Assembly (NCBI GenBank): GCA_009691445.1
Contig: SICL01000001.1
Span: 65,738-129,737 of the forward strand
Direction: 5' to 3'
From: Candidatus Taenariivivens baikalensis
GTDB taxonomy: Bacteria > Omnitrophota > Omnitrophia > Omnitrophales > Aquincolibacteriaceae
Length of the DNA stretch: 64,000 nt
Shown: positions 49,002-63,617 of the stretch, one piece after another
How positions within the stretch are numbered: the first letter of the stretch is position 1
Layout: each line of letters opens with the position of its first letter
Position numbers and translations under genes: made by a program
Notes under the pieces: model-generated
Database searches by the model: none
What the model was told of the DNA's origin: nothing
Seen by the model: the letters and a program-made list of their open reading frames with translations, nothing else

Positions 49002-49280
49002 TCAGCAATCTGCTTGGATCACAAGGTCAAGAGAAGACAAACGATTGATAAACGACAAGGCATCTTTCTCCGCCTGCTGAAGACTCACTTCAAAGGTATG
49101 GGTCAAGTGATCAATCACATCAGAGACAGCGAAATGACCGTCAAGGCAAATCCAGATTTCCGTCGCGACGGTATCAAACTGAAACACCTTTCCCTCTGCA
49201 TCATCCACTAAAACGGCCCGATCTTCGATAATCTTCCAGCTTATATCATCCCGTCTCTTAAAAATATCCGCCTTTTTCAT
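49002..49280 (-). CDS. PqqD-family protein (RiPP recognition element, RRE-type peptide chaperone) copy 1
   Basis: About 92 aa; 'WKIIEDRAVLVDDAEGKVFQFDTVATEIWICLDGHFAVSDVIDHLTHTFEVSLQQAEKDALSFINRLSSLDLV' fits the PqqD/RRE consensus. Start at Met-32 (AGGA SD, 8 nt after the upstream stop). Confidence 0.75.
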   Translation of the reverse strand: MKKADIFKRRDDISWKIIEDRAVLVDDAEGKVFQFDTVATEIWICLDGHFAVSDVIDHLTHTFEVSLQQAEKDALSFINRLSSLDLVIQADC

Positions 49281-49288
49281 GGAATTTC

Positions 49289-50815
49289 CTAGATTGAAAA
49301 AAAATGACCCAACGTCTGTTTGCATTGACGCGTGAAAATCAGCCAGTGAATCCTTATTTCTTCCGCAAAACATTCCAAGGCCTTTGAAATATTTCCCTGC
49401 CGCAGATAAACAGCTGCTAGTAGGGCATAAGTACGCGGCTTATGCCATCCCATCCGTAAGGCCTCACGGAGCTCTTTCCTCGCCTCTTCATAATTGCCCT
49501 CATGCAACTGGCATTCCGCAATACCTAAATGGGTTTGCGGATCAGTGGAATCAGACCGCATGGCCTTCAGAAGATGCTCAAGAGCCTTTCGATGATGGCT
49601 ACATCCTAAATGAATTTCTCCCAGATGGCGATGGGCCGACGCATGATCGGGATATTGAGCAATGACTTCCAAATATTTGGCGGCCGCCTTCCGCCACTCC
49701 TTGCGTCTCGATAAATACAAAGCCTCCCCCATCTTTGGCCAAGCCTCGTGCTGTAGAAGCTGACCCATTCTGGAGTATTCTTGATAGGCTTCCGTATACC
49801 GGCCCGCCTCTTCATAGTGGAGCGCAAAACAACTATCACTTGTGCGAAATTCAGGATCAATCAATGCGGCTTGTTCATAGACCAAGCGGGCCTCGTCAAG
49901 TCGCTTTTCTTCCCACAAGAGATTGGCTTTAAGAAAAAGTCGGGTCGCTTCAAAAATCCCTTCACTGTGAAAATGCTCCAAGGCCTTTTGGGTTTGTCCT
50001 GATTGCCCCTGAGAAAGCTGGAGCCATATTTGCTTAAGATGATGATAAGCTTCCGGCAGTGGGCGTCCTTGCGAAAGTTCGCAAAGAGTCACGCCGAAAA
50101 ATTTCATCAGGATGGGCGTGAAACCACCACGCACGGAGTGTGATACCGCAGTCAGCGATGCACGAATCCCCTTTTCCTGAAGCTTTCGATAAAACTCTTC
50201 GGGCCAAATCCAGGGTAATGATCGAAGCATCAGGGACGGTTTTGGGAGTTTTGAAATGGATCGAGCGGCAAAGTAATCCACATCAATATTTAAAAGCACC
50301 GGCTCTTCAATGACCGGCATTTCTTCCAGGGATGCAACAATCGTTTCCACGCCCCAAAAAGAGGTGCGAAATACGCCCCCTTCAACACGGGGATAATCCA
50401 TCGGGCCCATTTTTATTTTATAAAGATCTAGAAGATTTTGCCAGATCTCGAATTTAAGATGCGGCGATTTCCATTGGGGATCAGGCACAACCCAATACCA
50501 TTTCCGAACCATCTTTTCTTGAAAGACCCGGGATAAATAATTTCCTATATGAATTCGATGATGAAGACGTGGTGTAACTGTCCAGCCTTGGGGGGAAATA
50601 AGCTTTTGACCCACTTCCTGAAGGGTCGAAGCATCCAAGCAGCTTAGAGGTTGTTTATCTGAAATCCACTGAAAATCGGGGTGTTGATCAAAATGGACGA
50701 GGATAGCTTGATAAACCCCGCGTGCTTTCCACAACTGATAAACTTCATCATGATCGTCAACTAGATCAACCTGCGGGGAATTTGGAGGACAAGAAATTCC
50801 TGGAACGGAGTTCAT
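49289..50815 (-). CDS. UPF0489-like (arginase/deacetylase-fold-like) N-terminal domain fused to TPR repeats
   Basis: N-terminus carries 'ILVHFDQHPDF' and 'LLNIDVDYFA', reminiscent of the H-x-D / D-x-D metal motifs of arginase-fold and UPF0489 proteins. The C-terminal ~200 aa are TPR repeats. Confidence 0.45.
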   Translation of the reverse strand: MNSVPGISCPPNSPQVDLVDDHDEVYQLWKARGVYQAILVHFDQHPDFQWISDKQPLSCLDASTLQEVGQKLISPQGWTVTPRLHHRIHIGNYLSRVFQEKMVRKWYWVVPDPQWKSPHLKFEIWQNLLDLYKIKMGPMDYPRVEGGVFRTSFWGVETIVASLEEMPVIEEPVLLNIDVDYFAARSISKLPKPSLMLRSLPWIWPEEFYRKLQEKGIRASLTAVSHSVRGGFTPILMKFFGVTLCELSQGRPLPEAYHHLKQIWLQLSQGQSGQTQKALEHFHSEGIFEATRLFLKANLLWEEKRLDEARLVYEQAALIDPEFRTSDSCFALHYEEAGRYTEAYQEYSRMGQLLQHEAWPKMGEALYLSRRKEWRKAAAKYLEVIAQYPDHASAHRHLGEIHLGCSHHRKALEHLLKAMRSDSTDPQTHLGIAECQLHEGNYEEARKELREALRMGWHKPRTYALLAAVYLRQGNISKALECFAEEIRIHWLIFTRQCKQTLGHFFSI

Positions 50816-51108
50816 TCCGAAGAAATAGCTTTTATTTCAACAAGCTGAGATAAAAGAACTTCGAGATCCGTATTTATAGTCTGAGGCGAAACGTCAAACA
50901 CACCAAGCAGCTCTTCACGAATGTCACTGACTTTCTTCTTCCCATCAATCGCATCCCACACCACTGCCCCCATTTCGTTGAGAGAATAAATACTGTTAAC
51001 ATTTTCCAGATGGCGTTGTAGCGGGATGAGGACAATTTCCCCTGCAATTTTTCGGGCCACAAAATCGGGGCTTTTCTTGAAAAGTGAATCGTTAGTTTCA
51101 TTTATCAT
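50812..51108 (-). CDS. PqqD-family protein (RRE-type) copy 2
   Basis: About 98 aa; 'FVARKIAGEIVLIPLQRHLENVNSIYSLNEMGAVVWDAIDGKKKVSDIREELLGVFDVSPQTINTDLEVLLSQLVEIKAI'. Start set at the ATG at 51108. The TTG-extended ORF to 51198 would run through its own promoter. Confidence 0.75.
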   Translation of the reverse strand: MINETNDSLFKKSPDFVARKIAGEIVLIPLQRHLENVNSIYSLNEMGAVVWDAIDGKKKVSDIREELLGVFDVSPQTINTDLEVLLSQLVEIKAISSE

Positions 51109-51114
51109 GAGGAG

Positions 51115-51143
51115 ATTATAGGAACGGATGCAGGAATCGTCAA
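51115..51143 (-). promoter_or_regulatory. Putative sigma70 promoter TTGACG-N17-TATAAT for the pqqD2 operon (near-leaderless)
   Basis: Minus-strand -35 at 51143..51138 and -10 at 51120..51115. The -10 ends 6 nt before the ATG at 51108. Confidence 0.5.
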
Positions 51144-51163
51144 CAAAAGAGACAGCAATGTCT

Positions 51164-51192
51164 TTGAGAACTGCCGGCGGTAGTGCTAAAAT
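51164..51192 (+). promoter_or_regulatory. Putative sigma70 promoter TTGAGA-N17-(TG)TAAAAT for the nine-gene plus-strand operon
   Basis: -35 at 51164..51169, extended -10 TGcTAAAAT at 51184..51192, about 36-nt leader to the ATG at 51236. Confidence 0.5.
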
Positions 51193-51235
51193 GCGCAAGC
51201 AATTAATCCTAAATACGTGATGGATTCATAAGACT

Positions 51236-52087
51236 ATGACACTAATGATCGCGTCTCCTAATACATTCATGCGTTTCACCACAGATGGATCCAGCATGGG
51301 GGATTTTATCCAGGCGGGTGATGAACTCATCGCTAAACGTCTTTTTTCTCAGGACTATCACCTAGGAGATGTCCTCGTCTTCATGCATCCTGAACTTGAA
51401 AAACCCGTCGCCCACCGATTGCGGTGGAAGAAAAAAACGGGTCAGTCAGAGTGGGTTTTCTGTCTTTCCGGCGATTCCCATCCTCTTAGGTACGAATGGA
51501 TTCATGAGGATTTTATCAGAGGTCGGGTTGAACTGATTCTGAAAAAAAGTAGTAAAAAACTGCCCGCAGAATTTATCGTGAAGAATAATCTCTACACCCA
51601 TTGGATTTCCTTTATTCCGCATTGGATAGCCCATCAACTTAAAATCCTACTGATTCAAGGGCTTGAATTTTTTCAATCTCTGCCGGTTTCGCGCCATATT
51701 CTGGGCAAGATGCTTGGCTCGAAGGCGCGTTTTACTCACTATGATCATCTTAGCCATTTGGCGGTTGAGGCTAAGGTTTTTGGTAAATACGCAGGACGTG
51801 GACATCTCGTCTTTAATGCAAGCGAGGGGCCGGAGATTGTAAATCTTGAAGTCCGATCCCGATTCCAGGGGCTGGGCATTGGGAAGAAACTTCTTCATTT
51901 TTTAATTAACGAAGCCAAAAGCCGGAAAGCCACCCGCCTTTTCCTTTCTGTCTGGAATCAAAGCACACCGGCCTTACACCTTTATGAATCCGTCGGATTC
52001 CGAGCCATTCGCGAAGAAATGCTTCCTAGCGTCCGATGGCCCACACCTCGCTGCATGATAAAAATGGAGCTCCAGCTGGCTTCATGA
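51236..52087 (+). CDS. Peptidase S24/S26-like (LexA/signal-peptidase fold) domain fused to GNAT N-acetyltransferase
   Basis: N-terminal 'DGSSMGDFIQAGDELIAKRL...GDVLVF' fits the S24 'GDSM...GD.v.v' motif. C-terminal 'RFQGLGIGKKLL...RLFLSVWNQSTPALHLYESVGF' is a GNAT motif A. Confidence 0.65.
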   Translation: MTLMIASPNTFMRFTTDGSSMGDFIQAGDELIAKRLFSQDYHLGDVLVFMHPELEKPVAHRLRWKKKTGQSEWVFCLSGDSHPLRYEWIHEDFIRGRVELILKKSSKKLPAEFIVKNNLYTHWISFIPHWIAHQLKILLIQGLEFFQSLPVSRHILGKMLGSKARFTHYDHLSHLAVEAKVFGKYAGRGHLVFNASEGPEIVNLEVRSRFQGLGIGKKLLHFLINEAKSRKATRLFLSVWNQSTPALHLYESVGFRAIREEMLPSVRWPTPRCMIKMELQLAS

Positions 52088-53223
52088 CATCCGACACCGA
52101 ATCCTTACCCGTTTCTATATTGATGCAGGATCCATCTCGAGAAATTCTACAATCGTTTTTTTTTCCAACGGAGCGTGCGTGGGAAAATTCAATATTCAGT
52201 GGCGATTTTCTGATGGCAGAGGTAAAAAAACAAAAACTTGCTCTTCTTTTTCACTCGCTGGTTACGGTAAATTCCTCCTTGAAAAATAGTTTATCTCAAG
52301 ATCATCTTATTTGGCTCAAACATAACTACTACACAGCCCTTGAAAAGGTAACACTCCAGCAGGAAGCCATCAAAGAACTGCTTCACACCTTCCAAGAAAA
52401 CAATCTCCCCGTCATCCTTCTTCGGGGACAGTCCTTGGGACTTTTTTATTATCCGGATGCGGCATTGCGTCCGGCCTGGGATGTCGATATCCTCATTCAC
52501 CCCCAGGATCTCGCTCGCTGCGGGGATATCTGCAGCCAGTTAGGACTCGTGCGCCGGGAAGCGCATGGTGAAATAGGTTTTTTTAGAAATAGTGGGATTC
52601 AATTCCATTTGGATGTGCATACAGATCTTTGGTATGAATCCCAGGAAAATACTCTCTGGGAACGCTGCCTCCAAAAGGATTTTCTCGGCCAACCCTGCCT
52701 CATCTTGGGCCCTGAGGACCACGTGATTCACATCGTGGCCCATTCCGTGATGCATCACGGGCGTTTTTCGCTTCATGACGCTGTGGACCTCGCACTTATT
52801 ATTCGTAAAGAAGAACACCTTGATTGGACACAAATCCATCGGACGGTCAGAGGGACGCACCTGAGCGCAGTTATTTACTACGCTCTGAACAAAATTTCTG
52901 CGTGGACGAGTATCAAGATTCCCGATGCCTTGCTTTCCCCATTTAAACCGACGGGTGCCTCGGCCTGGCAGATTCCTTTCTATGAGCGTATCATTCGTTC
53001 ATATGACCGCCCATTTGTTGGACATTTTCTGCGTCCTTTTTGTATTCAAGGATGGCGGGGGAAAAAAAACTTTGTTCTGAACTATCTCTTCCCATCTTCT
53101 GAGTTTATTCGTCAGCGCTACTCGGCGCCGCATATGTTTTCAGTTGCGTGGTGGCGATTTGTTCGCCCGCTCACTCTGTGTTACAAAAGCCTGGGATTTC
53201 TCGTCAGATGTCTTCTACAATGA
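52084..53223 (+). CDS. Pol-beta-superfamily nucleotidyltransferase-like protein (NTP_transf_5/PF14907-like)
   Basis: 'LRGQSLGLFYYPDAALRPAWDVDILI' matches the minimal NTase motif hG[GS]-x(9-14)-DhDh. About 380 aa. ATGA overlap with the upstream gene. Confidence 0.55.
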   Translation: MTSDTESLPVSILMQDPSREILQSFFFPTERAWENSIFSGDFLMAEVKKQKLALLFHSLVTVNSSLKNSLSQDHLIWLKHNYYTALEKVTLQQEAIKELLHTFQENNLPVILLRGQSLGLFYYPDAALRPAWDVDILIHPQDLARCGDICSQLGLVRREAHGEIGFFRNSGIQFHLDVHTDLWYESQENTLWERCLQKDFLGQPCLILGPEDHVIHIVAHSVMHHGRFSLHDAVDLALIIRKEEHLDWTQIHRTVRGTHLSAVIYYALNKISAWTSIKIPDALLSPFKPTGASAWQIPFYERIIRSYDRPFVGHFLRPFCIQGWRGKKNFVLNYLFPSSEFIRQRYSAPHMFSVAWWRFVRPLTLCYKSLGFLVRCLLQ

Positions 53224-54047
53224 TCACGAATGATCACGACATTCAAATCATGACTCTCATGCCGCATGCCATTGAAGCGAAAAATTTGTCCAAGACTTTT
53301 AAGCATCGCGTTCCATTCGCCCCTTTTGGATCTCGTATTCCCCCCAATACCACGATCGCACTTCGTGAGTTTAATCTGACAATCAAGGCAGGAGAAATAT
53401 TTGCTCTCCTGGGTCCAAATGGTGCAGGAAAAACGACGCTCCTCAAGATTCTGAGTCATCTGGTAATTCCTGATGCTGGAGTTGCGCTCATTTATGGCCA
53501 CTCCTTCAAAACGCACGCAATGCGAATCAAAACCCTGGTCAGCTTGCTTTTAGGCGAGGAACGTAGCTTTTACTGGCGCCTTACTGGGAGGCAAAACCTT
53601 GAATTTTTCGCTGCCCTTTATGAGATAAAGCCTAAAGAAATCGCACTGAAAATCCTTCAAGTTGAAAAACTTTTTGAGCTGGAAAGTCTGGATCAACGTT
53701 ATCAGGAATATTCTTCGGGGATGAAACAAAGACTTGCTCTGGCAAGGTGTTTCTTAAGCCAGGCGAAACTTATTTTGATGGATGAGCCCACTCGAAATCT
53801 GGATCCGAATAACGCCGAAAAATTCAGGAGCCTCATAAAAACCTATCTTCAAGAAAGACCCGATCACACATTTTTTTTTACAACGCATAACACTCAGGAG
53901 GCAGAGTATCTTGCCCACCGGATCGGCATTTTGGATCACGGCGTTCTTCAAGCCTGTGGTTCTTTGGACGAACTACGTCATTTAATCAATAATCCAAACG
54001 CGTCACTCGATGAGATCTTTCATAACTTCACACGGAAAAAATCATGA
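53220..54047 (+). CDS. ABC transporter ATP-binding protein (ABC-2/DrrA-Wzt-like)
   Basis: Walker A 'GPNGAGKTT', signature 'YSSGMKQRL', Walker B 'ILMDEPT'. Confidence 0.9.
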   Translation: MITNDHDIQIMTLMPHAIEAKNLSKTFKHRVPFAPFGSRIPPNTTIALREFNLTIKAGEIFALLGPNGAGKTTLLKILSHLVIPDAGVALIYGHSFKTHAMRIKTLVSLLLGEERSFYWRLTGRQNLEFFAALYEIKPKEIALKILQVEKLFELESLDQRYQEYSSGMKQRLALARCFLSQAKLILMDEPTRNLDPNNAEKFRSLIKTYLQERPDHTFFFTTHNTQEAEYLAHRIGILDHGVLQACGSLDELRHLINNPNASLDEIFHNFTRKKS

Positions 54048-54853
54048 ACTGGAATACGATCATCGCTTTTTTTCGGCGCGACTACTTAGAACGAGCAACC
54101 TATAAGAGCGCCTTTTTCCTGGAGCTGGGAGGAATTCTTGCCAACCTCATTACGTTTTATTATATTCAAAAACTGTTTATCACTGCCCACCCAGCAGCCC
54201 TTCAGCCTTATGGCGGAGATTATTTCGCATTTGTTCTCATCGGGCTTGCTTTTTCAGGGTATCAATCCACAGCCCTAAACAGCTTCTCAACCGCCTTACG
54301 GCAAGAACAAATGCAGGGTACTCTGGAAGCAATCCTGTTAACTCCAACACGCATTGAGACCGTCATGCTGGCGGGATCAATCTGGAATTTTTTAGTCACC
54401 ACCTTGAAAATTCTAGCTCATCTGATGCTCGGTGTTGTATTTTTCCACCTTGATTTGTCTAAAATGAATTTACTTTCGGTGATTGTTACCTTGATTTTTA
54501 CGATTATTTCTTTGAGCAGTCTTGGGCTTTTCTCAGCCGGTTATACTTTGGTCCATCAAAAAGGTGACCCTGTCAATTTCGTCATTAATGCCGCCTCCCG
54601 TTTTTTCTCCGGGGTATATTTTCCCATCACTATGCTGCCCATTGGCCTTCAGTATGTTGCAAAGATTATTCCCCTCACACATGCATTGAACGCAATGCGT
54701 GACAGCCTTCTCAGAGGTTATTCGTTAACTCAAATTCATTCCGATCTTCTGTGGCTTATCCTATTCTCATTGATTCTCTTCCCTTCCGGAATTTTTTATT
54801 TTTATAAGTCTGTGGAAAAAGCAAAAAAAGAAGGGACGCTCATTTTTTATTAA
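54044..54853 (+). CDS. ABC-2 type transporter permease
   Basis: 269 aa, six predicted TM helices. ATGA overlap with the ATPase. Confidence 0.8.
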   Translation: MNWNTIIAFFRRDYLERATYKSAFFLELGGILANLITFYYIQKLFITAHPAALQPYGGDYFAFVLIGLAFSGYQSTALNSFSTALRQEQMQGTLEAILLTPTRIETVMLAGSIWNFLVTTLKILAHLMLGVVFFHLDLSKMNLLSVIVTLIFTIISLSSLGLFSAGYTLVHQKGDPVNFVINAASRFFSGVYFPITMLPIGLQYVAKIIPLTHALNAMRDSLLRGYSLTQIHSDLLWLILFSLILFPSGIFYFYKSVEKAKKEGTLIFY

Positions 54854-54854
54854 T

Positions 54855-56243
54855 ATGAAACGCTCGGTCATCATTTTTGGCGCAGGCGTGTCCGGACTTA
54901 CACTGGGCTGGAAACTTGCAAAGCAGAATTATCAGGTCCGAATCCTGGAAGCTTCCTCTCAAGTCGGCGGATTGGCTGGAACCATTCGTCAGAAGGGTTA
55001 CTGCTTGGATTTTGGACCCCATTCATTTTTTACCGACGACGAAGAAATCTCCAAAATTTTTCATCATCTTTTTCCTTCTCCGTTGCCTCCTCTTAGCCGA
55101 CGGGTCCGGTTTCGTTATCAGGGGAAATACCTGGACTACCCTCTCACCGCACAAAGTGTTCTCTTTCAAATGGGACTGCACCAGGGATTGAAAGCTTTGG
55201 GAAGTTTTCTGATAACTCGGTTTGCGCCCAGCAAGGAACCGCCCCTTCATGAGCAAAGTGTAAAGGATTGGGCGGTTCGTCACTTTGGTCGACACCTGTA
55301 TGAAACATTTTTTAAGCCCTACACCGAGCAGTTCTGGAAAATTCCTGCCGAGGATCTCTCAGCACAGTCGATTCCCACCAGCACTCGAACTGGTTTTTTT
55401 AAAGCATTACACCTGATGCTGCAAAAAAATAGTCCCGGTAAGAATCCGTCTCTCATGGAACGGGAGACTCTACCGACATTTTATCCCTCAACCGGATATG
55501 GCGAACTCCCTGAAAGAATTCTAGCAGAGTTTTTGCGGGCTGGCGGTAAGCTCGTTCTTGATTCGAAAGTCACGGGACTCGAGCATCTTCCGTCCAATGA
55601 ATTCCGCATTGAAACGGTTGAGAACCAGACTATCACAAATTACTTGGCTGACATTGTTGTTTCAACGATTCCCCTACCCGTGTTAATCCAAACCCTTGAA
55701 CCCGCCGTTTCCCCTGAGGTCCGCGATGCCGCAAATCGCCTCAAATACCGACCGCTAATCGTTCTAGGCTTAATGACTTCAAAGCAAAAGGTCCTTAGGG
55801 ATTGGATGTACGTTTACTTCCTTGACCGTTCCTACAACCGCATTTTTGAAACGTCCCAATTTAGCTCGTCCGCATGCCCGCCTGGTAAAAATTTGCTCGC
55901 CCTTGAAATCCCTTGTTCATTTCAAGATCCGCTGTATTGCGCAACGGCGGAGGATCTCCTGGAAAAGGTCCTTCCGGATCTTCACCGTGATGGCTTGCTT
56001 GAACGGGGGGATATTGAAGGGATGATGCTTGTAAAATCCAAGTACGCCTATCCGATCTATCACCTGGAATACCGCAAGCATCTGGCACTCGTGCATCAGT
56101 ACCTATCCAGCATTCCGAATCTTCATATTCTGGGACGCACAGGAGAATTTAGGTATATGGATGCAGATCGGTGCATGCGGTTCGCCTTGGAACTCTTTGG
56201 AAAAATTGATCAACATCAACCCGATAAACTTCCTTCGTATTAA
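54855..56243 (+). CDS. FAD/NAD(P)-binding amine-oxidase/protoporphyrinogen-oxidase-like oxidoreductase
   Basis: 'IIFGAGVSGLTLGWKLA...LEASSQVGGLAGT' dinucleotide-binding motif; 462 aa. Confidence 0.7.
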   Translation: MKRSVIIFGAGVSGLTLGWKLAKQNYQVRILEASSQVGGLAGTIRQKGYCLDFGPHSFFTDDEEISKIFHHLFPSPLPPLSRRVRFRYQGKYLDYPLTAQSVLFQMGLHQGLKALGSFLITRFAPSKEPPLHEQSVKDWAVRHFGRHLYETFFKPYTEQFWKIPAEDLSAQSIPTSTRTGFFKALHLMLQKNSPGKNPSLMERETLPTFYPSTGYGELPERILAEFLRAGGKLVLDSKVTGLEHLPSNEFRIETVENQTITNYLADIVVSTIPLPVLIQTLEPAVSPEVRDAANRLKYRPLIVLGLMTSKQKVLRDWMYVYFLDRSYNRIFETSQFSSSACPPGKNLLALEIPCSFQDPLYCATAEDLLEKVLPDLHRDGLLERGDIEGMMLVKSKYAYPIYHLEYRKHLALVHQYLSSIPNLHILGRTGEFRYMDADRCMRFALELFGKIDQHQPDKLPSY

Positions 56244-56288
56244 TCATCTTTACTTTAAATAAAAACCGTTATTAAATGTCTTGCGATC

Positions 56289-57566
56289 ATGACAAAAAAT
56301 CTGATATCCCCTGCAGAAAAAAGGAAATCCTTCGGTAAAGATAGAGTAACCGCCTGCCGCATCTGCCAGTCTCAAATTATTCCCTTTATCAACTTCGGAA
56401 ATATGCCCCTCGCCAATGGTTTTCTTACACCCGCACAGTTCGCAGAGGAATACTTCTATCCTCTTGAATGCTCTGTCTGCAGTTCGTGCTGGATGGTTCA
56501 ACTCAGCCATCAACCTGACCCGGAGTGGATGTTCCATTCCAACTACCCTTTTTTTACGGGAACTTCCCAGCGAATGTCGAATCATTTCAGGGCCCTGGCC
56601 GATACGATCATGTCCCACTATCTGGATCAGCAGAAGGATCCCTTCATTCTAGAGATCGGAAGTAATGACGGTACTTTCTTGAAACATTTCAGCAAAAAGA
56701 GTATTCGCACACTCGGGATCGAGCCCTCGGCCAGCGTTGCTGAACGTTCCCGGAATTTAGGAATCCCCACACTTCAGAAGTTTTTTGACGCGGAAGTCGC
56801 CGAATCGATTTTAAAAGAGCATGGTCAACCGCACGTCATTTATGCGGCAAATGCCTTGTGTCATATCCCAGATCTTGCGGGTACTTTTGAGGCGATTCAA
56901 AAGCTTATGCACCCCCAGGGGATTTTAATTTTCGAAGATCCATATTTGCCTTCCGTCCTGGAAAAGACGGCATACGATCAAATTTACGATGAACACGTTT
57001 ACCTTTTTTCGCTGCATTCGGTTAGCAACCTCGCAAAACGCTATGGCTTTGAAGTCTTCGATGCACAGCAGCTTGATACGCACGGTGGCTCGATGCGCTA
57101 CTTTCTGTCCCGCCAGGCCCGCAAACAGCTTTATGACGATCTTTGGTCCTTAACCGTGTCAGAAAAAAACTTTCATCTTGATGAGATAGCGACTTACATG
57201 AAATTTTCTGGCGCCTGTGAAACGTCCCGAACTACTTTGAAATCACTCCTGCTAAACCTAAAGCAAGAGGGGAAATCCATCGCGGGTTATGCCGCCACTT
57301 CCAAAAGCACAACCGTTCTCAACTATTGCGGCATTGACAAGTCTCTCATTGATTTTATTGCCGACTCCACGCCAGAAAAACAAGGCAAGCTTACACCTGG
57401 ATCTCATATCCCTATTGTTTCGCCGGACTATTTCCAATCCAACTACCCCGATTACGCCCTTCTTTTTGGTTGGAATCATTTAGAAGAAATTTCCGGGAAA
57501 GAACAAACGTTCCAGAAGGCTGGAGGCCGGTGGATTGTTTACGTACCTAAAGTGCAAGTTATATGA
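56289..57566 (+). CDS. Sugar C-methyltransferase family protein (TylC3/NovU-like: Zn-ribbon + class I SAM MTase + C-terminal domain)
   Basis: N-terminal CxxC...CxxC ('CRICQSQ...CSVCSSC') and 'ILEIGSNDGTFL' SAM motif I. At 425 aa it is typical of NDP-hexose C-methyltransferases. Confidence 0.6.
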   Translation: MTKNLISPAEKRKSFGKDRVTACRICQSQIIPFINFGNMPLANGFLTPAQFAEEYFYPLECSVCSSCWMVQLSHQPDPEWMFHSNYPFFTGTSQRMSNHFRALADTIMSHYLDQQKDPFILEIGSNDGTFLKHFSKKSIRTLGIEPSASVAERSRNLGIPTLQKFFDAEVAESILKEHGQPHVIYAANALCHIPDLAGTFEAIQKLMHPQGILIFEDPYLPSVLEKTAYDQIYDEHVYLFSLHSVSNLAKRYGFEVFDAQQLDTHGGSMRYFLSRQARKQLYDDLWSLTVSEKNFHLDEIATYMKFSGACETSRTTLKSLLLNLKQEGKSIAGYAATSKSTTVLNYCGIDKSLIDFIADSTPEKQGKLTPGSHIPIVSPDYFQSNYPDYALLFGWNHLEEISGKEQTFQKAGGRWIVYVPKVQVI

Positions 57567-58639
57567 TGCAGGCCCATCTTTCTGATGATCGCCTTCAGGA
57601 ATCCCCTTCTGTTTATCCAAAAGAAAATAGGAGCAATTCAGAGGCTGATGTTTTGTCGGACTTTAATTTATTTTTTTCAGGGAAAAAGATTCTTGTCACC
57701 GGGGCCAGCGGATATATCGCCCATACCCTTATTGAAAGACTGTCGCATTTTAAATGCGAACTCTATCTTTCATCCCAGCATCCCGACCAGATCACACCAC
57801 CACCCCTCAATTTGGGGTTGCTCAAATTCATGTCTCTTTCTTCTGATTTTTCCCTGCACACCTTTCAGAACATCGTTCCTGAATTGGATATAATTTTTCA
57901 TCTCAGCGCCCAGACAAATCTAACCTGTTCTTTTCAAAATCCTGGGCAAGATTTTATTGCGAATGTCTTGCCACTGGTCCACATTTTGGAGGCCGCGAAA
58001 AGACGCCAGAAACCTCTCGCGGTCATTCTGGCAAGTACCGTCACCATCTTCGGTATCCCCAATAAAATCCCTGTCAATGAATCATGCCCCGATCACCCAA
58101 TGACCTTTTACTGTTTCCATAAAAAACTGGCCGAGGATTATCTGAAAAGCTATACGGATGGTTCCTGGGTGACCGGCGCTTCTCTGAGGCTGCCAAATAT
58201 TTATGGACCGGGGCCAAAATCGAGCAATACAGAGCGCGGGGTCCTGAATCAGATGATTCGCAAATCCATCCAAGGCCACCCCCTTACCATCTATGGAGAG
58301 GGCCGAGAAATCAGGGATTATCTCTACATCGAAGATGCCGTGGACGCATTCCTATACTCTGCGCTGAATCATACACGGTTGGTGGGAAAGCCTTACGTGA
58401 TTGGTTCCGGGCACGGGTCTTCGATAAGTCAAAGCATTTCCCTTGTGGCGGAAAGAGTTGGGTCCTATCTGAGTCGAAATATTTCAATCGAGCACATTGA
58501 TCATCCGGAGAATAACTACGCCATCAACGAGAGGAATTTCGTGGCCGACGCTCAATTGTTTGCATCTCTGACGGGGTGGAAGGCCCGTACCTCCCTATCC
58601 GATGGCATTGCTCAAACGCTAAAAAGTTACTTAATATGA
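57563..58639 (+). CDS. Extended-SDR NAD-dependent epimerase/dehydratase
   Basis: 'ILVTGASGYIAHTL' and the YxxxK catalytic dyad (YCFHK). Confidence 0.8.
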   Translation: MMQAHLSDDRLQESPSVYPKENRSNSEADVLSDFNLFFSGKKILVTGASGYIAHTLIERLSHFKCELYLSSQHPDQITPPPLNLGLLKFMSLSSDFSLHTFQNIVPELDIIFHLSAQTNLTCSFQNPGQDFIANVLPLVHILEAAKRRQKPLAVILASTVTIFGIPNKIPVNESCPDHPMTFYCFHKKLAEDYLKSYTDGSWVTGASLRLPNIYGPGPKSSNTERGVLNQMIRKSIQGHPLTIYGEGREIRDYLYIEDAVDAFLYSALNHTRLVGKPYVIGSGHGSSISQSISLVAERVGSYLSRNISIEHIDHPENNYAINERNFVADAQLFASLTGWKARTSLSDGIAQTLKSYLI

Positions 58640-59604
58640 AAATTCTAATATTGGGCGGAGCTGGATTTCTTGGAACTAATCTTACACGAGGCTGGCTTGG
58701 GAATCCCGATGCTCAAGTCACAGTTCTCGATAGTTTTGATAACCGTTTTCAGTCCAACAAAAAATCCTTGGATGATGTGTGGGAGAAAATTAGTGTCGTT
58801 CGAGGATCTATATTAGACGAAAGACTTCTCGCTGAAATCGTTCCTCAACATGATGTGATCTATCACCTCGCCGCCCAGTCTTCCCACACCCTTTCGTTAA
58901 AACAACCGATTCTTGACGCTGAAATTAATTGTCTAGGAACTTTGAAGCTCCTTGAAAGTATCCGTTTATTTCATCCCGAGGCTTTAGTTATTTATCCATC
59001 CAGCACGACAAGCGTAGGAAAAGCTGAGGAAGACATCATCGACGAAAATCATTCCGAGAAACCTCTTGAAATATACTCTGCCAATAAAGGCGTCTCAGAA
59101 AAATATTTCCAAATTTACAACCTCGTTCACGGACTTAAGACCATCGTCTTTCGCTTTAGCAACCTTTACGGCCCTTACGGAAAAGCTTCTGCCGAGTTTG
59201 GATTTATCAATCATTTCATTTATCAAGCGCTCAATCATCGGCCCCTGACCATTTTTGGCTCGGGGGAACAGATCCGTAATGTCCTGTACGTGGGCGACGC
59301 GGTCGAACTTTTGATGTCAGCGGCATATCAACCGCAACTGTGCGGACAGCTTGCTCAGGCAACAAGCCCCCATCACCACTCTGTCCGTCAAATTGCTCAA
59401 ACCATTGTGGAAACTTTTCAGTCGGGACATGTCGTCTATGAAACCTGGCCGAATGAAAGAAAGCGCATTGACGTGGAAAGCGTCCGCTTTTCCTCCGAAA
59501 AACTCCGCGCCCTTACGGGGTGGAGCGCCCCCACTGATCTTGTCACGGGCATTCGAAGAACATGTGAAATTCTTCTTTCTTCTGAGTCTCGGGAACGACC
59601 TTGA
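58636..59604 (+). CDS. Extended-SDR NAD-dependent epimerase/dehydratase
   Basis: 'ILILGGAGFLGTNL', YSANK. ATGA overlap upstream. Confidence 0.8.
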   Translation: MKILILGGAGFLGTNLTRGWLGNPDAQVTVLDSFDNRFQSNKKSLDDVWEKISVVRGSILDERLLAEIVPQHDVIYHLAAQSSHTLSLKQPILDAEINCLGTLKLLESIRLFHPEALVIYPSSTTSVGKAEEDIIDENHSEKPLEIYSANKGVSEKYFQIYNLVHGLKTIVFRFSNLYGPYGKASAEFGFINHFIYQALNHRPLTIFGSGEQIRNVLYVGDAVELLMSAAYQPQLCGQLAQATSPHHHSVRQIAQTIVETFQSGHVVYETWPNERKRIDVESVRFSSEKLRALTGWSAPTDLVTGIRRTCEILLSSESRERP

Positions 59605-60542
59605 AGATTGTTATCACGGGAGCTTTAGGATATATCGGTTCTAAACTTATCCAAGAAATCCAAAAAAAAATTCCTAGAGCACGGCTGATCTTGATTGATA
59701 ATTTGATGACTCGAAATCAGGCATCTCTTTCAGACCTACCTGGCCATGTGCCGTATGAATTCCATAAAATCGATGTACTACACGATGATTTGAGTCCCTA
59801 TTTTCAAGACGCTCAGTTTGCGGTTCATTTAGCCGCAGCGGTCGATCCTCAAAACTATCCCACCGAAAATCTTTCAAACCACCGCATGACACAGCGGGTT
59901 GCAGAGGAATGCCTAAAAAACCACACGACTCTTATCTTCCCATCAACCACGAGTGTTTATGGTGTTTCGCACCCCCACCTCTGCGAATCTGAGGACTCGA
60001 ATACGGTTCACCCGCAAACTCCCTACGCCCACGATAAACGCATCTCAGAACTTTATTTTCACGGCCTTGCAGCGGAAGGCCTTCGTTTTGTCATCTTTCG
60101 ATTTGCGACAATTTTCGGAGTTTCCCCGGGACTTCGCTACCAAACCGCGATTGGAAAGTTCTGCCAGGATGCTGTCATGAACCATCAAATCGCTGTTTGG
60201 AGCTCAGCGCTCCATCAGTACCGTCCCTATTTAGACCTTGAGGATGCCGTGCAAGCCATTCTCTTCGCCCTTACCAACCAGCTGGATACCGGCGAAATCT
60301 TTAATCTGGCAAGCCTTCACGCAACGGCAAAGGAAGTTCTTGATCTCATCGCTTGTTCTGCTTCATTTGAGACAAAATTAGTTCCGTCACCACTTATGAA
60401 CAATCTCAGTTATCAGATTTCGTGTGAAAAAATTTGCCGGAAGGGATTTGTGTTTCGTGGAAATTTAGAAGCTGGAATTAGAGATACAATCGATGTACTC
60501 CGATATCAGGAATCAGACCTTTTCAACAAAAACAGGGTTTGA
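59601..60542 (+). CDS. Extended-SDR NAD-dependent epimerase/dehydratase
   Basis: 'IVITGALGYIGSKL', YAHDK. TTG start overlapping the upstream stop (TTGA). Confidence 0.7.
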   Translation: MKIVITGALGYIGSKLIQEIQKKIPRARLILIDNLMTRNQASLSDLPGHVPYEFHKIDVLHDDLSPYFQDAQFAVHLAAAVDPQNYPTENLSNHRMTQRVAEECLKNHTTLIFPSTTSVYGVSHPHLCESEDSNTVHPQTPYAHDKRISELYFHGLAAEGLRFVIFRFATIFGVSPGLRYQTAIGKFCQDAVMNHQIAVWSSALHQYRPYLDLEDAVQAILFALTNQLDTGEIFNLASLHATAKEVLDLIACSASFETKLVPSPLMNNLSYQISCEKICRKGFVFRGNLEAGIRDTIDVLRYQESDLFNKNRV

Positions 60543-61808
60543 CATCACTCGCCCCCCTGTCCTGACCTCGCCCTGAACTCGGTAATAAATCAAAGGACCA
60601 TCCTCAAACGCGTTGGGATCTTCCCATCCAAAAGATGGCTTAGTTTTAGAAAGTGCATCTTCATAAACGACTTGTCCATTTCGGATCACCTGAACATTAA
60701 CTTCATCTCCCGACTTTTTCTCGGTGACCAATCCGATCTCAACAAAAATCCTGGGTTGTCCGGTGCAAATAAGCGTTTCACCCATTCCTGATTTTTTTTC
60801 CGACGCCGAGTCAGAAATGAAAAAATCATTAAGACGGAGATCGGTATGTTTAATTTTTCGAATATAAAAACTTCCCCGCTTGATTGAATCTAAAATGGCC
60901 TCGGGGGTGCGCGCCGTTGCTCGAACAAAATTATCCCATTTCCCAAAATTCTCTTGAAACGTTTTCTTATGAATGACCCCCTCCGCAAAGGCCCAAACAG
61001 GTTGAGAGCGACGCTTCCGGCAGTATTTGTAAAGAAGCTGGTCCCAAATCCCACCGACTCGGCCCGTCTCCACAGTTCCATCGGGAAAAATGCCAACTCC
61101 TGTGTAATTTTCTGTATCCAACAATGCCTGGCTGTAAGCAGGGGTTTTAAAATAAATTGGTCCGATTTTAAAATTCGAGCCAAAAACCTCGTCAGGAGTG
61201 GACCAAATCGTGATGCCCTGATGAGCTTGGACATAATCGATCAGGACTTGATACGGTTTTGCCCCCTCCCTTTTAGGGCCTAAGTTTCGGGTGAGATTCC
61301 CATTTTCAATCGTTGGTAGATTCTGAAGGGATGGAGCATCCAAACCCGCCACTAGAATATTTTTCTGCAGGTCATGGACGGTCCAATCTTGTGACCATAA
61401 ACTGCCACTCCACCAATAATACGGTGTGACCTCGGCACCGGGAATCGCTAAGACTTCGGGATAAGTTTGGTTGAACTCATCCGTGGCTTGAAAATAGCGG
61501 GAAACGCCGTACTTCACGGCCGATGGTTTCTCGTGACTCCATTGAAGGAACGGAATCGGCGGAACTAATCGCACCGTCACTTTTTGCTGGAAATATTCAG
61601 TCAGAAGTAGAACATCGACATCTTTTTCTTTAGCAAATTGGGCATAATCTTCGAGGGAATATTCATCTTCCCCGCTGATCTGCGAATGAGCATGCAAAAT
61701 CACACGATAATCGTGCAGGCCGGAACTTGAAAAAGCAAAAACTGGGAATGCCGACAACAAGAGTGCGGGGAAGATAAAAAAAAGATAAAAGTTATTGTTT
61801 TTGCGCAT
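60513..61808 (-). CDS. Secreted PHP-domain-like phosphoesterase family protein
   Basis: Signal peptide; 'VILHAHSQISGEDEYSLEDYAQFAKEKDVDVLLLTEY' resembles the PHP 'hHhH..S.G......e....a...g...hahTDH' N-terminal motif. Confidence 0.45.
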   Translation of the reverse strand: MRKNNNFYLFFIFPALLLSAFPVFAFSSSGLHDYRVILHAHSQISGEDEYSLEDYAQFAKEKDVDVLLLTEYFQQKVTVRLVPPIPFLQWSHEKPSAVKYGVSRYFQATDEFNQTYPEVLAIPGAEVTPYYWWSGSLWSQDWTVHDLQKNILVAGLDAPSLQNLPTIENGNLTRNLGPKREGAKPYQVLIDYVQAHQGITIWSTPDEVFGSNFKIGPIYFKTPAYSQALLDTENYTGVGIFPDGTVETGRVGGIWDQLLYKYCRKRRSQPVWAFAEGVIHKKTFQENFGKWDNFVRATARTPEAILDSIKRGSFYIRKIKHTDLRLNDFFISDSASEKKSGMGETLICTGQPRIFVEIGLVTEKKSGDEVNVQVIRNGQVVYEDALSKTKPSFGWEDPNAFEDGPLIYYRVQGEVRTGGRVMSNPVFVEKV

Positions 61809-62712
61809 AAACCGTCATGGAGGAACCGCGAATAATTTTTCCATTTGAAAATCGATAAAGAATCTCAAACAGTCCGTACCAAAGATGCCTGCGAAGCAAC
61901 TCGAAAGGGGTCCCCGTCTTCCGTGGTATCCCATTGCGAATATCCAAAACCTTAAACCCATACTTGATCAGAAATCGGCTCATCGTTTGCGGGCTGTAAT
62001 CGAACAAGTGCCGGGGGGGATTTATTAAAAAAAAGCGTCCAAGCCCTAAAACACCAAGCCATTGGTCAATCGACGCATTCTGATTGGGAACTCGGATGAT
62101 CAAGAGTCCTCCAGGTTTCAAGAACTGAGCGGCCAGAGCAAGAATCTTCTCCGGATTTGGCACATGTTCCATGACATACCATAAGGTGACAACGTCATAC
62201 GGGGCGTCAGCCGTGGGGTCCAGAGATTCAATGACACCCTGGACAACATCGAGTCCTAAATTCTGACGAGCATGTTTAACCGCTTCAGAAGATGGCTCAA
62301 CTCCCTTCGTCGTCCATCCTTTCTTACGCATTAAATCGAGAAAAAAGCCCATGCCGCAGCCAACATCTAAAATTCTTGGTGGGTTCGAAAGTATAAGACC
62401 ATGACTGGCCTGAAAATCCATGATTCGATAAAGCCCCTCGATTAAAAATATTTGGGACATTTGCTTCTGCCACAAAGGAGCCGATTCGGAAGGGAAATAA
62501 TTTTCATAGAATCTCATAAGCCCCTGAGCATCCGGGCGAGGATTCGCGAAGGCTAAGGAACAATTTCGACAACGCACAATTGGGATCAGTTGCTCTACCA
62601 CGAGACGCTTGAAGTCCTTTCCACCGCAAAGCGGGCAAAGAATAAATTCAAGATTATATCCTCCTTGAAATTCCAGGTTTTCCAATGGCGTATTCTTGGC
62701 GACATGCTTCAT
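61792..62712 (-). CDS. Class I SAM-dependent methyltransferase with N-terminal Cys4 zinc ribbon
   Basis: 'CPLCGG...CRNCSLAF' followed by 'ILDVGCGMGFFLDLM'. Start trimmed to Met-30 (abuts the upstream stop). Confidence 0.75.
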   Translation of the reverse strand: MKHVAKNTPLENLEFQGGYNLEFILCPLCGGKDFKRLVVEQLIPIVRCRNCSLAFANPRPDAQGLMRFYENYFPSESAPLWQKQMSQIFLIEGLYRIMDFQASHGLILSNPPRILDVGCGMGFFLDLMRKKGWTTKGVEPSSEAVKHARQNLGLDVVQGVIESLDPTADAPYDVVTLWYVMEHVPNPEKILALAAQFLKPGGLLIIRVPNQNASIDQWLGVLGLGRFFLINPPRHLFDYSPQTMSRFLIKYGFKVLDIRNGIPRKTGTPFELLRRHLWYGLFEILYRFSNGKIIRGSSMTVYAQKQ

Positions 62713-63617
62713 CAGAGAGATTTCCTTGTGGTTACAAATAAGGACGGCCCCAGAACCTTCCCCGTTATCCGGTGGAGAACCTTTGCCAGAGCATAACATA
62801 AACGCGTCACTATTCTTGACCCCGTCGGCCCCAGAAGAGCGACAAGGACTTGAGGTTCCGCGTCCAACGGCGAGTTGCTAATTTTTGTTTCGGTAAATCC
62901 TTTTGTTTGCAAAAAATGTTTGATGGAAACCGTATCAAACATACAAAGATGAAAAACCGTCGGCTCACGTTGATCACGAGGGATCAAATAGACTGATTTC
63001 AAAAATCCAAGAAATCGGTGGAGACCCAAATGAAAAGTCGCATTCGAGACACGCAAAACTAAAAGACCTCCGGGCTTGATCACTTGAAAAATTTCCTCAA
63101 GCTGCTCCGCCGGATCCCACATTTGATCAAGCACATTCCAAAGTGTCACCACAGAAAATTCATTGGGAGGGAAATGTGAATTTTTCAACTCAGCCTGAAT
63201 CACTGATAGATCAAGCGATTCCCTGGCATGCCGAATAGCCGCCTCGGAAAGCTCGATACCCGTGACTTCCCAGCCATGGCTTCGAGCCAAATCGAGAAAA
63301 AAACCGCCGCCGCAACCCACATCCAGCAATTTCCGCTCCGAAATACTCGCTTCGATCTTATTGAGAGCAAATTGAAAAAAACGTGTTCGATTATCCTTCC
63401 ACTCGCGAAAATCTGCCCGTTCAAAATACTCCTTCTCATAAAAAGTTTTTTCGTGGCTCAGAGAAGGCCGGGGATTCAGATAGGCTAAACCGCAAATTTG
63501 GCACCGAACCAGATCCGTCATAATCCGTATCGGTGAGGAGAAAACTTTTGTAACCGTTGCCGCCTCTGTCCTGTGGCACCCTGGGCACGAGACAGGTTGA
63601 GTTTGAAGGTTTGTCAT
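62712..63617 (-). CDS. Class I SAM-dependent methyltransferase with N-terminal Cys4 zinc ribbon (paralog of the preceding gene)
   Basis: 'CPGCH...CQICGLAY' followed by 'LLDVGCGGGFFLDLA'. Same architecture as 61792..62712. Confidence 0.75.
   Translation of the reverse strand: MTNLQTQPVSCPGCHRTEAATVTKVFSSPIRIMTDLVRCQICGLAYLNPRPSLSHEKTFYEKEYFERADFREWKDNRTRFFQFALNKIEASISERKLLDVGCGGGFFLDLARSHGWEVTGIELSEAAIRHARESLDLSVIQAELKNSHFPPNEFSVVTLWNVLDQMWDPAEQLEEIFQVIKPGGLLVLRVSNATFHLGLHRFLGFLKSVYLIPRDQREPTVFHLCMFDTVSIKHFLQTKGFTETKISNSPLDAEPQVLVALLGPTGSRIVTRLCYALAKVLHRITGKVLGPSLFVTTRKSL

Follow-up and report, generated by a model that had tools for sequence, protein, structure and literature searches.

The question raised by this locus is whether genes for peptide tailoring and genes for sugar chemistry, placed one after another in a single operon, serve one pathway or merely lie side by side. 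The operon comprises nine plus-strand open reading frames (ORFs), here numbered g1 to g9, spanning 51236..60542 of a 64-kb stretch of a Candidatus Omnitrophota metagenome-assembled genome; the whole of this stretch is referred to as the window. It was compared with five related metagenomic loci (L002, L087, L088, L089 and L091), recovered with g2 and an arginase-like domain as handles, which together with the window make up the six loci discussed below. On the evidence of sequence comparison, we assign a probability of roughly 0.55 to the reading that the cluster matures a small ribosomal peptide, decorates it with sugar and exports it. The operon most likely forms one arm of a larger cluster, which has at least 17 genes and extends from 49002 to beyond 64000. 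The nine genes taken as the functional unit in the preliminary description of this DNA are therefore too few, as the cluster also has a divergent arm of PqqD and arginase-like genes and a group of convergent genes.

The domain order proposed earlier for the nine genes is borne out by Pfam and NCBIfam:

g1, 51236..52087, plus strand: signal-peptidase-like N-terminal domain (S26/S24 fold, Ser-His type) fused to a GNAT acetyltransferase.
g2, 52084..53223, plus strand: nucleotidyltransferase-fold protein of the NTP_transf_5 family (PF14907).
g3, 53220..54047, plus strand: ATP-binding cassette (ABC) ATPase of the DrrA/ABCA type, 275 aa, a nucleotide-binding domain (NBD) with no extra domain.
g4, 54044..54853, plus strand: ABC-2 permease (Pfam ABC2_membrane, E=8e-14).
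g5, 54855..56243, plus strand: flavin adenine dinucleotide (FAD) flavoprotein of the UDP-galactopyranose mutase (UGM)/protoporphyrinogen oxidase/amine-oxidase superfamily, PRK07208-like.
g6, 56289..57566, plus strand: nucleoside diphosphate (NDP)-sugar 3-C-methyltransferase of the TcaB9/KijD1/TylC3 type.
g7, 57563..58639, plus strand: extended short-chain dehydrogenase/reductase (SDR), epimerase/reductase-like, with a 40-aa N-terminal extension (Pfam Epimerase, E=2.6e-35).
g8, 58636..59604, plus strand: extended SDR (Pfam Epimerase, E=3.7e-41).
g9, 59601..60542, plus strand: extended SDR with a TTG start (Pfam Epimerase, E=3.5e-33).

A recheck of the sequence returned all nine ORFs and every junction as first described. 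The eight junctions comprise six 4-nt overlaps (ATGA at 52084, 53220, 54044, 57563 and 58636, TTGA at 59601), a 1-nt gap at 54854 between g4 and g5, and a 45-nt spacer at 56244..56288 between g5 and g6. The TTG start of g9 is required because its Rossmann motif opens at residue 6. Independent gene calls in two other assemblies of the same organism agreed on 379, 275, 269, 462, 425, 358, 322 and 313 aa for g2 to g9 and differed on g1 (283 against 280 aa). The NCBI annotation places the start of g2 at 52036 (395 aa) rather than 52084 (379 aa) and that of g3 at 53208 (279 aa) rather than 53220 (275 aa), so that two of the 4-nt overlaps hinge on the choice of start; 4-nt overlaps are kept at the same g1/g2 and g2/g3 junctions in the orthologous locus L002, matching the shorter forms. 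A 4-nt overlap is possible in 11 of the 45 other same-strand junctions, as against six of eight in the operon (Fisher one-sided p = 0.0096); such overlaps are common in this compact genome and still enriched in the operon. Neither the 1-nt gap nor the 45-nt spacer contains a terminator-like or promoter-like site, and the spacer forms no hairpin and folds no better than shuffles (z = 0.47). A terminator or internal promoter at 54853/54855, which the preliminary description had named as a possible functional break between g4 and g5, is thus not seen.

Divergent from g1 lie three genes, two of them for PqqD proteins with the recognition element (RRE) of RiPPs (peptides made by ribosomes and modified post-translationally), and one for a 508-aa protein that combines an arginase-like domain with TPR repeats:

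Divergent intergenic region, 51109..51235 (127 nt), no strand assigned: the two best promoter-like sites of an 11-kb scan, back to back.
PqqD_a, 50812..51198, minus strand: first PqqD/RRE protein (Pfam PqqD, E=1.3e-13); likely true start Met31 at 51108 (98 aa).
Arginase-like::TPR protein, 49289..50815, minus strand: peptide-arginase-like ureohydrolase domain (aa 1-290) followed by TPR repeats (aa 290-508, Pfam TPR).
PqqD_b, 49002..49373, minus strand: second PqqD/RRE protein (Pfam PqqD, E=9.6e-13); likely true start Met32 at 49280 (92 aa).

Both PqqD proteins lie above the Pfam gathering score, as an RRE-dependent RiPP cluster requires, and their RRE domains score best against lasso-type chaperones; the best NCBIfam match of PqqD_b is the lasso PqqD chaperone (1.2e-8). 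Matches of the two to ScmD (3e-6 and 6e-8) are far under its curated cutoff. The 98-aa form of PqqD_a agrees with an independent gene call, and the Met32 start of PqqD_b lies 8 nt past the stop of the upstream gene. Orthologs of PqqD_a are found in all five related loci (45-58% identity), and those of PqqD_b at the same position in L087, L089 and L091 (29-37%). Converging on PqqD_b is a 133-aa ORF (48587..48988, plus strand), the product of which carries a lipoprotein signal (lipobox LSTGC) and matches no family; it sits where relatives have a block of radical S-adenosylmethionine (SAM) and precursor genes.

The first 290 residues of the TPR protein give no Pfam hit above threshold, and a search of the PDB with the single sequence found no match. 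The family profile alone found one, the peptide arginase OspR (8BRP, E=4.8e-13). When 1.84 billion representatives were scanned in full with HMMER, the protein fell into a family of 531 members, mostly about 500 aa long and with the same architecture; in other members of the arginase family, the fusion partner is a B12-radical SAM or a lasso-B2-like domain. The six Mn ligands (H22, D43, H45, D47, D178 and D180), in the ureohydrolase pattern GGDHS / DxHxD / DxD, are kept in 44-45 of 45 aligned relatives and align to OspR H12, D39, H41, D43, D165 and D167. With the AlphaFold2 (AF2) model of the protein (predicted local distance difference test, pLDDT, 78.7; predicted TM-score, pTM, 0.81), Foldseek returned the 8BRP chains as its top three hits, followed by agmatinases and arginases, at modest TM-scores of ~0.42. 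By profile, conserved ligands and predicted fold, the TPR protein is a homologue of the peptide arginases, a family known to act on peptide side chains, and hence the divergent arm is a predicted peptide-modification module. Its NCBIfam match to FlmR/OhkR (9.4e-7) reaches 28.6 bits for NF052474 against a cutoff of 350, which indicates a distinct TPR-fused subfamily.

In the intergenic region shared by the two arms, the minus-strand site (TTGACG-17-TATAAT, 11/12, 51143..51115) ends 7 nt before the probable PqqD_a ATG at 51108, and the plus-strand site (TTGAGA-17-TAAAAT with a TG extension, 10/12) occupies 51164..51192. Both are consensus matches, the total count of which equals the shuffle expectation. 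The placement of the minus-strand site would give a leaderless or near-leaderless PqqD_a mRNA.

The first four genes of the operon are also best interpreted on the peptide side. The GNAT domain of g1 is clear (Pfam E=1.7e-12), and the solved GNATs nearest to it are RimI and N-terminal acetyltransferases. Its N-terminal domain matches TIGR02228 at 5.7e-7, under the curated cutoff, and carries a Ser20 (in GSSM) and a His60 (in HR) that are invariant across three homologs; it aligns by hhalign, with a probability of 92%, to a stand-alone S24 peptidase of locus L009 that adjoins nucleotidyltransferase, PqqD and radical SAM genes. These features suggest a putative leader protease. Such S24::GNAT fusions are very rare: a search for close homologs gave two full-length clusters out of 5.8 billion proteins and a single locus from the GTDB species representatives, and JGI metagenome contigs yielded no hit.

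The g2 protein scores 110 bits against a cutoff of 31.2 for Pfam PF14907 and retains an invariant D133 and D135 (WDVDIL), a DxD metal-binding motif. Members of the NTP_transf_5 family occur in lasso clusters, and 80 distant loci (21-29% identity) have neighbourhoods of two kinds. The RiPP-like kind includes classical lasso clusters, cyclase-less cassettes of PqqD, HprK-like, B2-like, nucleotidyltransferase, ABC and ABC-2 genes, and sets of radical SAM, PqqD and S24 genes. The glycan kind, in a census of 136 neighbouring ORFs, includes glycosyltransferases (GTs) of families GT2 (7), GT4 (4) and GT1 (3), SDRs (3) and Wzx-like proteins (2). Two of the distant loci (L019:7599-13038 and L016:46-3644) contain genes for PqqD, an HprK-related kinase, a lasso-B2-like protease, NTP_transf_5, ABC and ABC-2 proteins and no lasso cyclase nearby, and represent lasso-like machinery without its defining enzyme.

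For the exporter, the ranking of hidden Markov model (HMM) scores and genomic context were used as proxies for a phylogeny of the ATPase. The g3 protein scores 184 bits against TIGR01188 (drrA), with other families at 126 bits or less, and its nearest PDB chains are the NBDs of ABCA1/3/4/7. It possesses no C-terminal carbohydrate-binding domain, and neither Wzt, TagH nor KpsT is among its top matches. The NCBIfam ranking of g4 puts DrrB (3.2e-12) above KpsM (2.7e-8) and NodJ (5.6e-8), all far under cutoffs; its PDB matches, to ABCG and CcmB, are weak, and its orthologs show 50% identity in L002 and 38% in L088. The closest relatives of g3 and g4 (38-46% identity) adjoin NTP_transf_5, PqqD, HprK-like and lasso-B2-like genes. 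Because g3 is not Wzt/TagH-like and these relatives lie in PqqD and nucleotidyltransferase cassettes, the exporter is assigned to the peptide side, and the boundary between the two modules would be the 1-nt gap at 54854. The firm placement of the ATPase within Wzt/TagH, which would have spoken for glycan export, is seen neither in the HMM ranking nor in the PDB matches or domain content, and a glycan-export ATPase of the Wzt type is accordingly disfavoured for this 275-aa protein, whose relatives share their cassettes with PqqD, HprK, B2 and nucleotidyltransferase genes.

Branched-sugar chemistry is well supported by sequence for g5 to g9. At its centre is g6, which matches 5T64 ('Sugar 3-C-methyl transferase', KijD1-type) over its full length (residues 21-425, E=4.6e-119) and TcaB9 likewise (1.8e-116). 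It has the zinc-binding, SAM and C-terminal domains PF08421, PF13489 and PF08484, and the Cys residues of the zinc-binding domain (C23, C26, C61 and C64) can be read from its sequence. These matches identify g6 as a predicted bona fide NDP-sugar 3-C-methyltransferase. The g5 protein matches NF005548 at 5e-88, under the cutoff, and its nearest PDB chains are UDP-galactopyranose mutases (4e-16, N-terminal part only). Of the earlier name 'FAD amine-oxidase-like', the flavoprotein part stands and the amine-oxidase part does not, as UDP-galactopyranose mutase and protoporphyrinogen oxidase are nearer in the PDB. Its orthologs in L002, L087 and L091 show 41-48% identity.

The PDB matches of g7 to g9 as a set are remote and comprise 4-epimerases, UDP-glucuronate decarboxylases and tyvelose epimerase. 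Those of g7 (4-epimerases, UXS and tyvelose epimerase) are at 1e-24 or weaker, and the top matches of g8, at 1e-30, are epimerases, among them CDP-tyvelose 2-epimerase. Orthologs of g7 show 35-38% identity, those of g9 in L002 and L087 37-38%, and g8 has no ortholog in L002. All three were rightly called extended SDRs, and their paralogy is loose: g7 and g8 are 31% identical, and g9 matches neither (tblastn, E<1e-3). Each retains YxxxK, and none has the TDE/SE acid/base pair of a 4,6-dehydratase. A hidden 4,6-dehydratase among the three was considered and rejected, the pair being absent and the PDB matches weak and dominated by epimerases. Beyond g7 to g9, tblastn found no further 4,6-dehydratase-like SDR in the window, and the sugar-1-phosphate nucleotidyltransferase motif GxG[TS][RK][LMFI] occurs in none of its frames, consistent with the earlier statement that the window holds no NDP-sugar pyrophosphorylase or 4,6-dehydratase. 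With no dehydratase pair in g7 to g9, and no RmlA motif or additional SDR in the window, the label 'deoxysugar' first given to this chemistry is unproven.

Four further genes converge on g9 from the opposite strand:

CehA/McbA-like metallohydrolase, predicted secreted, 60513..61808, minus strand: NF038032, 5.8e-10; convergent, with a 30-nt overlap with g9.
MTa, 61792..62799, minus strand: class I SAM methyltransferase (Pfam Methyltransf_23, E=7e-28).
MTb, 62712..63617, minus strand: second class I SAM methyltransferase (Pfam hit).
GT4 glycosyltransferase, C-terminal part, 63614..64000, minus strand: Pfam Glycos_transf_1, E=1.3e-22; the gene runs off the window.

The sequence of the CehA/McbA-like protein shows a signal-like segment at its N-terminus; in L088, its ortholog (39% identity) is the gene directly upstream of PqqD. 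MTa is the best-conserved gene of the cluster, with 62% identity in L002 and 63% in L088 at syntenic positions, and the MTb ortholog (38%) adjoins that of MTa in L088. The GT4 protein is 394 aa long on a short contig of the same organism and is 60% identical to the GT4 that precedes the two methyltransferase genes in L088.

The five related loci hold the parts of the window together at 29-63% amino acid identity, in differing arrangements. In L002, PqqD and arginase::TPR genes face a series of S24::GNAT, nucleotidyltransferase, ABC, ABC-2, FAD, methyltransferase, C-methyltransferase and two SDR genes (30-51% identity), with a 4-nt spacing between ABC-2 and FAD genes; the MTa ortholog and then a Wzx flippase gene are convergent to it. 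In L087 and L091, a unit of FAD, methyltransferase, C-methyltransferase and two SDR genes is the divergent neighbour of PqqD, arginase::TPR and PqqD (g5 46-48% and g6 50-53% identity). L088 has the GT4, MTb, MTa, CehA-like, PqqD, arginase::TPR and PqqD genes collinear with the window, in which, by comparison, the nine-gene operon is nested, inverted, between CehA-like and PqqD genes. This locus also contains an ABC/ABC-2 pair (38%), three GT genes and a 682-aa protein (L088:20614-21491, the gene running off the locus) with both GNAT and NTP_transf_5 Pfam domains, so that the GNAT of g1 and the NTP_transf_5 domain of g2 have counterparts in one protein there. In L089, a gene for a GT-C-like membrane protein lies upstream of PqqD, arginase::TPR and PqqD, followed by a block of radical SAM, precursor and ScmC genes and a second set of sugar genes. 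In each of the five related loci, the PqqD genes are flanked by genes for large membrane proteins of ~640-700 aa with weak PMT_2 (GT-C) hits (3.9e-5, 1e-3), for instance at L002:1117-5240. That the association of peptide and sugar genes outlasts rearrangement at such divergence argues for one pathway rather than chance juxtaposition. The joining of the two kinds of genes, described from the start as unusual, is therefore upheld by their recurrence and by the precursor found in the relatives. The two explanations offered for it fared differently, in that the sugar-decorated peptide is favoured and the fused glycan-export module is not supported.

The second sugar sets mentioned above follow the radical SAM cassette at L087:15999-21491 and L089:10608-16103, and contain SDR, NTP_transferase (L089), GHMP kinase, SDR, thiamine-dependent E1 alpha/beta and DegT aminotransferase genes. 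They may represent another branched or amino sugar pathway.

The arrangement of these loci bears on the rival that survives best, namely that two independent modules are merely co-transcribed, one for peptide maturation and export (g1 to g4 with PqqD) and one a sugar-nucleotide pathway (g5 to g9) that feeds neighbouring polysaccharide genes such as GT4 and the methyltransferases. Genes typical of glycans do lie downstream (GT4 and two methyltransferases in the window, Wzx in L002, three GTs in L088), the sugar module is a separate, divergent unit in L087 and L091, and the distant nucleotidyltransferase/ABC cassettes of L019 and L016 have no adjoining sugar genes. Against this, the flavoprotein/3-C-methyltransferase/SDR module adjoins the PqqD/arginase core in four of the six loci, at 35-53% identity, a linkage that outlasts rearrangement; the operon sits inside a conserved array of GT4, methyltransferase, methyltransferase, CehA and PqqD genes; the GT and methyltransferase genes are themselves collinear with the PqqD/arginase core in L088; and the ABC-2/FAD junction is as tight as 1 nt here and 4 nt in L002. 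We regard mere co-transcription as unlikely.

The peptide itself is most visible in three of the relatives. After the second PqqD gene, L087, L088 and L089 contain two radical SAM genes, a small ORF, an HprK-like ScmC gene and a third radical SAM gene, which is a cassette of the SynChlorMet type. The small ORFs (L088:13853-14041, L087:13818-14018 and L089:8440-8640) encode 63-67 aa, those of L087 and L089 being 52-56% identical to that of L088. They share an invariant leader, K.YE.PK.YRVVL.HDQAILS.CST, which contains the YxxP motif known from lasso leaders. They also have in common three Cys, one Arg that does not vary, a core rich in Ser and Thr, and Ser-Ser at the C-terminus. The SynChlorMet (Scm) cassette of NCBIfam/TIGRFAMs (ScmC, ScmD, radical SAM ScmE/F) is an orphan predicted RiPP system, and the conserved small ORF may, judging from these shared features, be its missing precursor. 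A literature search on 'SynChlorMet' and 'PF14907' found nothing relevant. Precursor-like ORFs with a KYEAP/KYEHP leader and Gly/Ser/Cys-rich cores also occur a few kb from NTP_transf_5 genes at L050:5360 (plus strand) and L075:1416-1568; an example is MSNNEKMLKPKYEAPVVVALGG...

Under the favoured glycopeptide reading, the following mechanism is proposed, the order of its events being inferred. The nine genes would be transcribed as a single unit. A precursor encoded outside the window would be bound through its YxxP-type leader by the RREs of the PqqD proteins, and the arginase-like enzyme would turn Arg into Orn. That a putative protease is fused to a GNAT of the N-terminal type suggests leader cleavage followed by N-acetylation: the protease domain of g1 would cut the leader and the GNAT domain acetylate the new N-terminus. 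On the sugar side, g5 to g9 would start from an NDP-sugar made elsewhere and produce a C-3-methyl-branched sugar from it, with the keto group provided by an SDR or the flavoprotein, C-3 methylated by g6, and an SDR reducing or epimerising the product. PsmN, from the cluster of the lasso peptide pseudomycoidin, is required for the addition of a hexose to phospho-Ser, and its D134A/D136A mutant is dead (PMC6993621). This precedent, with its essential Asp pair, and the invariant D133/D135 make g2 the best candidate for coupling the sugar to the peptide. In the relatives, a PMT_2-like GT-C membrane enzyme could do the coupling instead, and the presence there of such enzymes together with Wzx suggests an alternative periplasmic route in which lipid-linked sugars are transferred to the Ser/Thr-rich core. 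Export of the product would fall to g3 and g4.

Several observations weigh against this reading. No precursor was found in the window, whether in the intergenic gaps, by a search for the leader motif or by tblastn with the related precursors; tblastn with the radical SAM and ScmC proteins of L088 found neither a radical SAM enzyme nor an HprK/ScmC kinase in the window; and no GT-C gene is present in its 64 kb. Together these absences are the main weakness of a peptide product at this locus. When every small ORF of the window was compared with every one of L002, no shared precursor emerged either, just alternative-frame shadows of conserved genes. The supply of keto-sugar for g6 is also not encoded in the window, which has no RmlA-type motif and no 4,6-dehydratase. 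The protease assignment of g1 relies on sub-threshold hits and motifs, the AF2 model, from a two-sequence alignment, being unusable (pLDDT 54; N-terminal domain <50). The likeness of g2 to PsmN lies in the Asp motif and the proposed role, and PsmN is called an uncharacterised nucleotidyltransferase by its authors (PMC6993621). The GT4, Wzx and GT-C genes of the neighbourhoods would also fit a lipid-linked glycan route. Finally, all six loci are metagenomic and the evidence is computational throughout.

Some of these points would suit a cluster that makes or remodels a cell-envelope glycan or glycolipid with no free peptide, in which the PqqD, arginase-like, GNAT and NTP_transf_5 proteins act on sugars or an envelope protein (for example in sugar N-acetylation, deacylation or nucleotidyl activation) and the ABC-2 pair exports a lipid-linked intermediate. 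The missing precursor and the GT-C-like membrane proteins of the five related loci are in keeping with such a product, as are the GT2, GT4, GT1, SDR and Wzx-like genes that often adjoin NTP_transf_5 relatives, a LytR-CpsA-Psr gene beside the nucleotidyltransferase in L009 and a UDP-glucose dehydrogenase in L081; GNATs acetylate amino sugars too (a weak NF008212 match). It is countered by two RRE domains that score best against lasso-type chaperones, by an arginase domain closest to peptide arginase in sequence and fold, with family members fused to B12 radical SAM or lasso-B2 domains, by the conserved leader-bearing precursor in three related loci, and by an ATPase that is not Wzt-, TagH- or KpsT-like. 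We consider a purely envelope-directed cluster improbable. Least probable is a reduced remnant, no longer working, from which radical SAM, kinase, precursor and GT-C genes were lost: L087 to L089 do have the radical SAM/precursor/ScmC block directly after PqqD_b where the window has a small lipoprotein and a DUF255 protein, but the cluster genes wholly within the window are intact, with ortholog-like lengths and catalytic residues kept (GT4 runs off the end), the tight overlaps are retained, and the missing genes may lie elsewhere on the 195-kb contig or in the genome.

Comparison with known systems places the glycopeptide reading among several partial likenesses. Lasso clusters of the paeninodin/pseudomycoidin type (PsmK kinase, PsmN) share with the window a PqqD-type RRE, a DxD nucleotidyltransferase (PsmN being putatively of the NTP_transf_5 type) and an ABC exporter (PMC6993621). 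The window differs in having no lasso cyclase, B2 protease or kinase, in a protease that is signal-peptidase-like and GNAT-fused, and in the sugar-tailoring genes of its operon. The hexose of pseudomycoidin is attached to a phosphorylated C-terminal Ser, and the related loci encode an HprK-like ScmC, while their precursors end in Ser-Ser. These two partners of NTP_transf_5, an HprK-like kinase and a precursor with a C-terminal Ser, are absent from the window and both present in L087 to L089. A lasso peptide cluster was rejected as a description of the locus, as nothing in the window matches the lasso C (Asn-synthetase-like cyclase) and B2 proteins of L003. With the SynChlorMet cassette, L087, L088 and L089 share PqqD, two radical SAM genes, the small ORF, ScmC and the third radical SAM gene, whereas the window lacks radical SAM and ScmC genes.

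The peptide arginases OspR, FlmR and OhkR (landornamide and orphan RiPPs; PMC10028609, PMC12703449) have the ureohydrolase fold and six Mn ligands in common with the window protein. The predicted arginase of the window differs by its C-terminal TPR fusion, its position between two RREs and its membership of a separate family, that of the 531 proteins. Wzm/Wzt, TagGH and KpsMT systems similarly have an ABC-2 permease, a separate ATPase and glycan genes nearby, but the ATPase of the window has no C-terminal carbohydrate-binding domain, is of the DrrA/ABCA type and stands in a RiPP-like context. The TcaB9/KijD1/TylC3 pathways (tetronitrose, kijanose and mycarose) resemble the sugar module by the full-length match to g6 (E 1e-119 to 1e-82), the same three-domain architecture and adjacent SDR partners, and differ in that their starting point is a dTDP-4-keto-6-deoxy sugar, the product of RmlA and RmlB, neither of which is encoded in the window. 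Products of these pathways are polyketide or aminoglycoside sugars, not peptide decorations.

We know of no glycosylated RiPP with a C-methyl-branched sugar or with a dedicated branched-sugar pathway in its operon. The genes of cacaoidin, a lanthidin, likewise form a RiPP cluster with its own sugar-nucleotide genes (rmlA, rmlB and rmlD) and three GTs, and yield a peptide with 6-deoxy sugars (PMC8068269). Cacaoidin is a lanthipeptide of actinomycete origin in which classical GT2/GT4 enzymes glycosylate Tyr, and its cluster has no C-methyltransferase, RRE pair, arginase or NTP_transf_5; the window, for its part, has no dehydratase or pyrophosphorylase. RiPP clusters with their own sugar genes are therefore already known, and the components of the present family all differ from those of cacaoidin, comprising two RREs, a TPR-fused arginase homologue, an NTP_transf_5 protein, a GNAT-fused putative protease, a UGM-like flavoprotein and a module for a C-3-methyl-branched sugar. 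Few glycosylated ribosomal peptides are known: a count made in 2021 listed only glycocins, NAI-112 and cacaoidin as glycosylated bacterial RiPPs (PMC8068269), to which pseudomycoidin adds a phospho-hexose (PMC6993621). It is possible, and put forward here tentatively, that the loci define an undescribed class of RiPP-glycan hybrids in uncultured bacteria including Omnitrophota, in which an NTP_transf_5 and/or PMT-like GT-C enzyme would attach a C-methyl-branched sugar or oligosaccharide, built by in-cluster genes, to a Cys-bridged peptide that is rich in Ser and Thr, contains ornithine and has a lasso-type leader motif. In that case the orphan SynChlorMet cassette would acquire a product, and the coupling of sugars to peptides would become a general function of NTP_transf_5.

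Outside the operon, the genes of the window are almost all on the minus strand, including Mur ligases at 33080..35969. The protein encoded at 41682..43028 (minus strand) is of uncommon architecture, a response-regulator receiver domain fused to a CofD/YvcK-like domain; a separate two-component pair comes next, at 43202..45354. Scans of the whole 64 kb gave neither a tRNA gene nor an Rfam family at gathering score.

If the favoured glycopeptide reading is true, NTP_transf_5, the TPR-fused arginase family, the SynChlorMet cassette and PRK07208-like flavoproteins, all of them little understood, would be linked in one pathway, for which the related loci give concrete precursor sequences. The enzymes concerned would include a protease-acetyltransferase fusion and activities for Arg-to-Orn conversion and sugar attachment, of use in peptide engineering. 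The Omnitrophota are a phylum of very small, possibly host-dependent cells, and secreted glycopeptides would be part of their biology.

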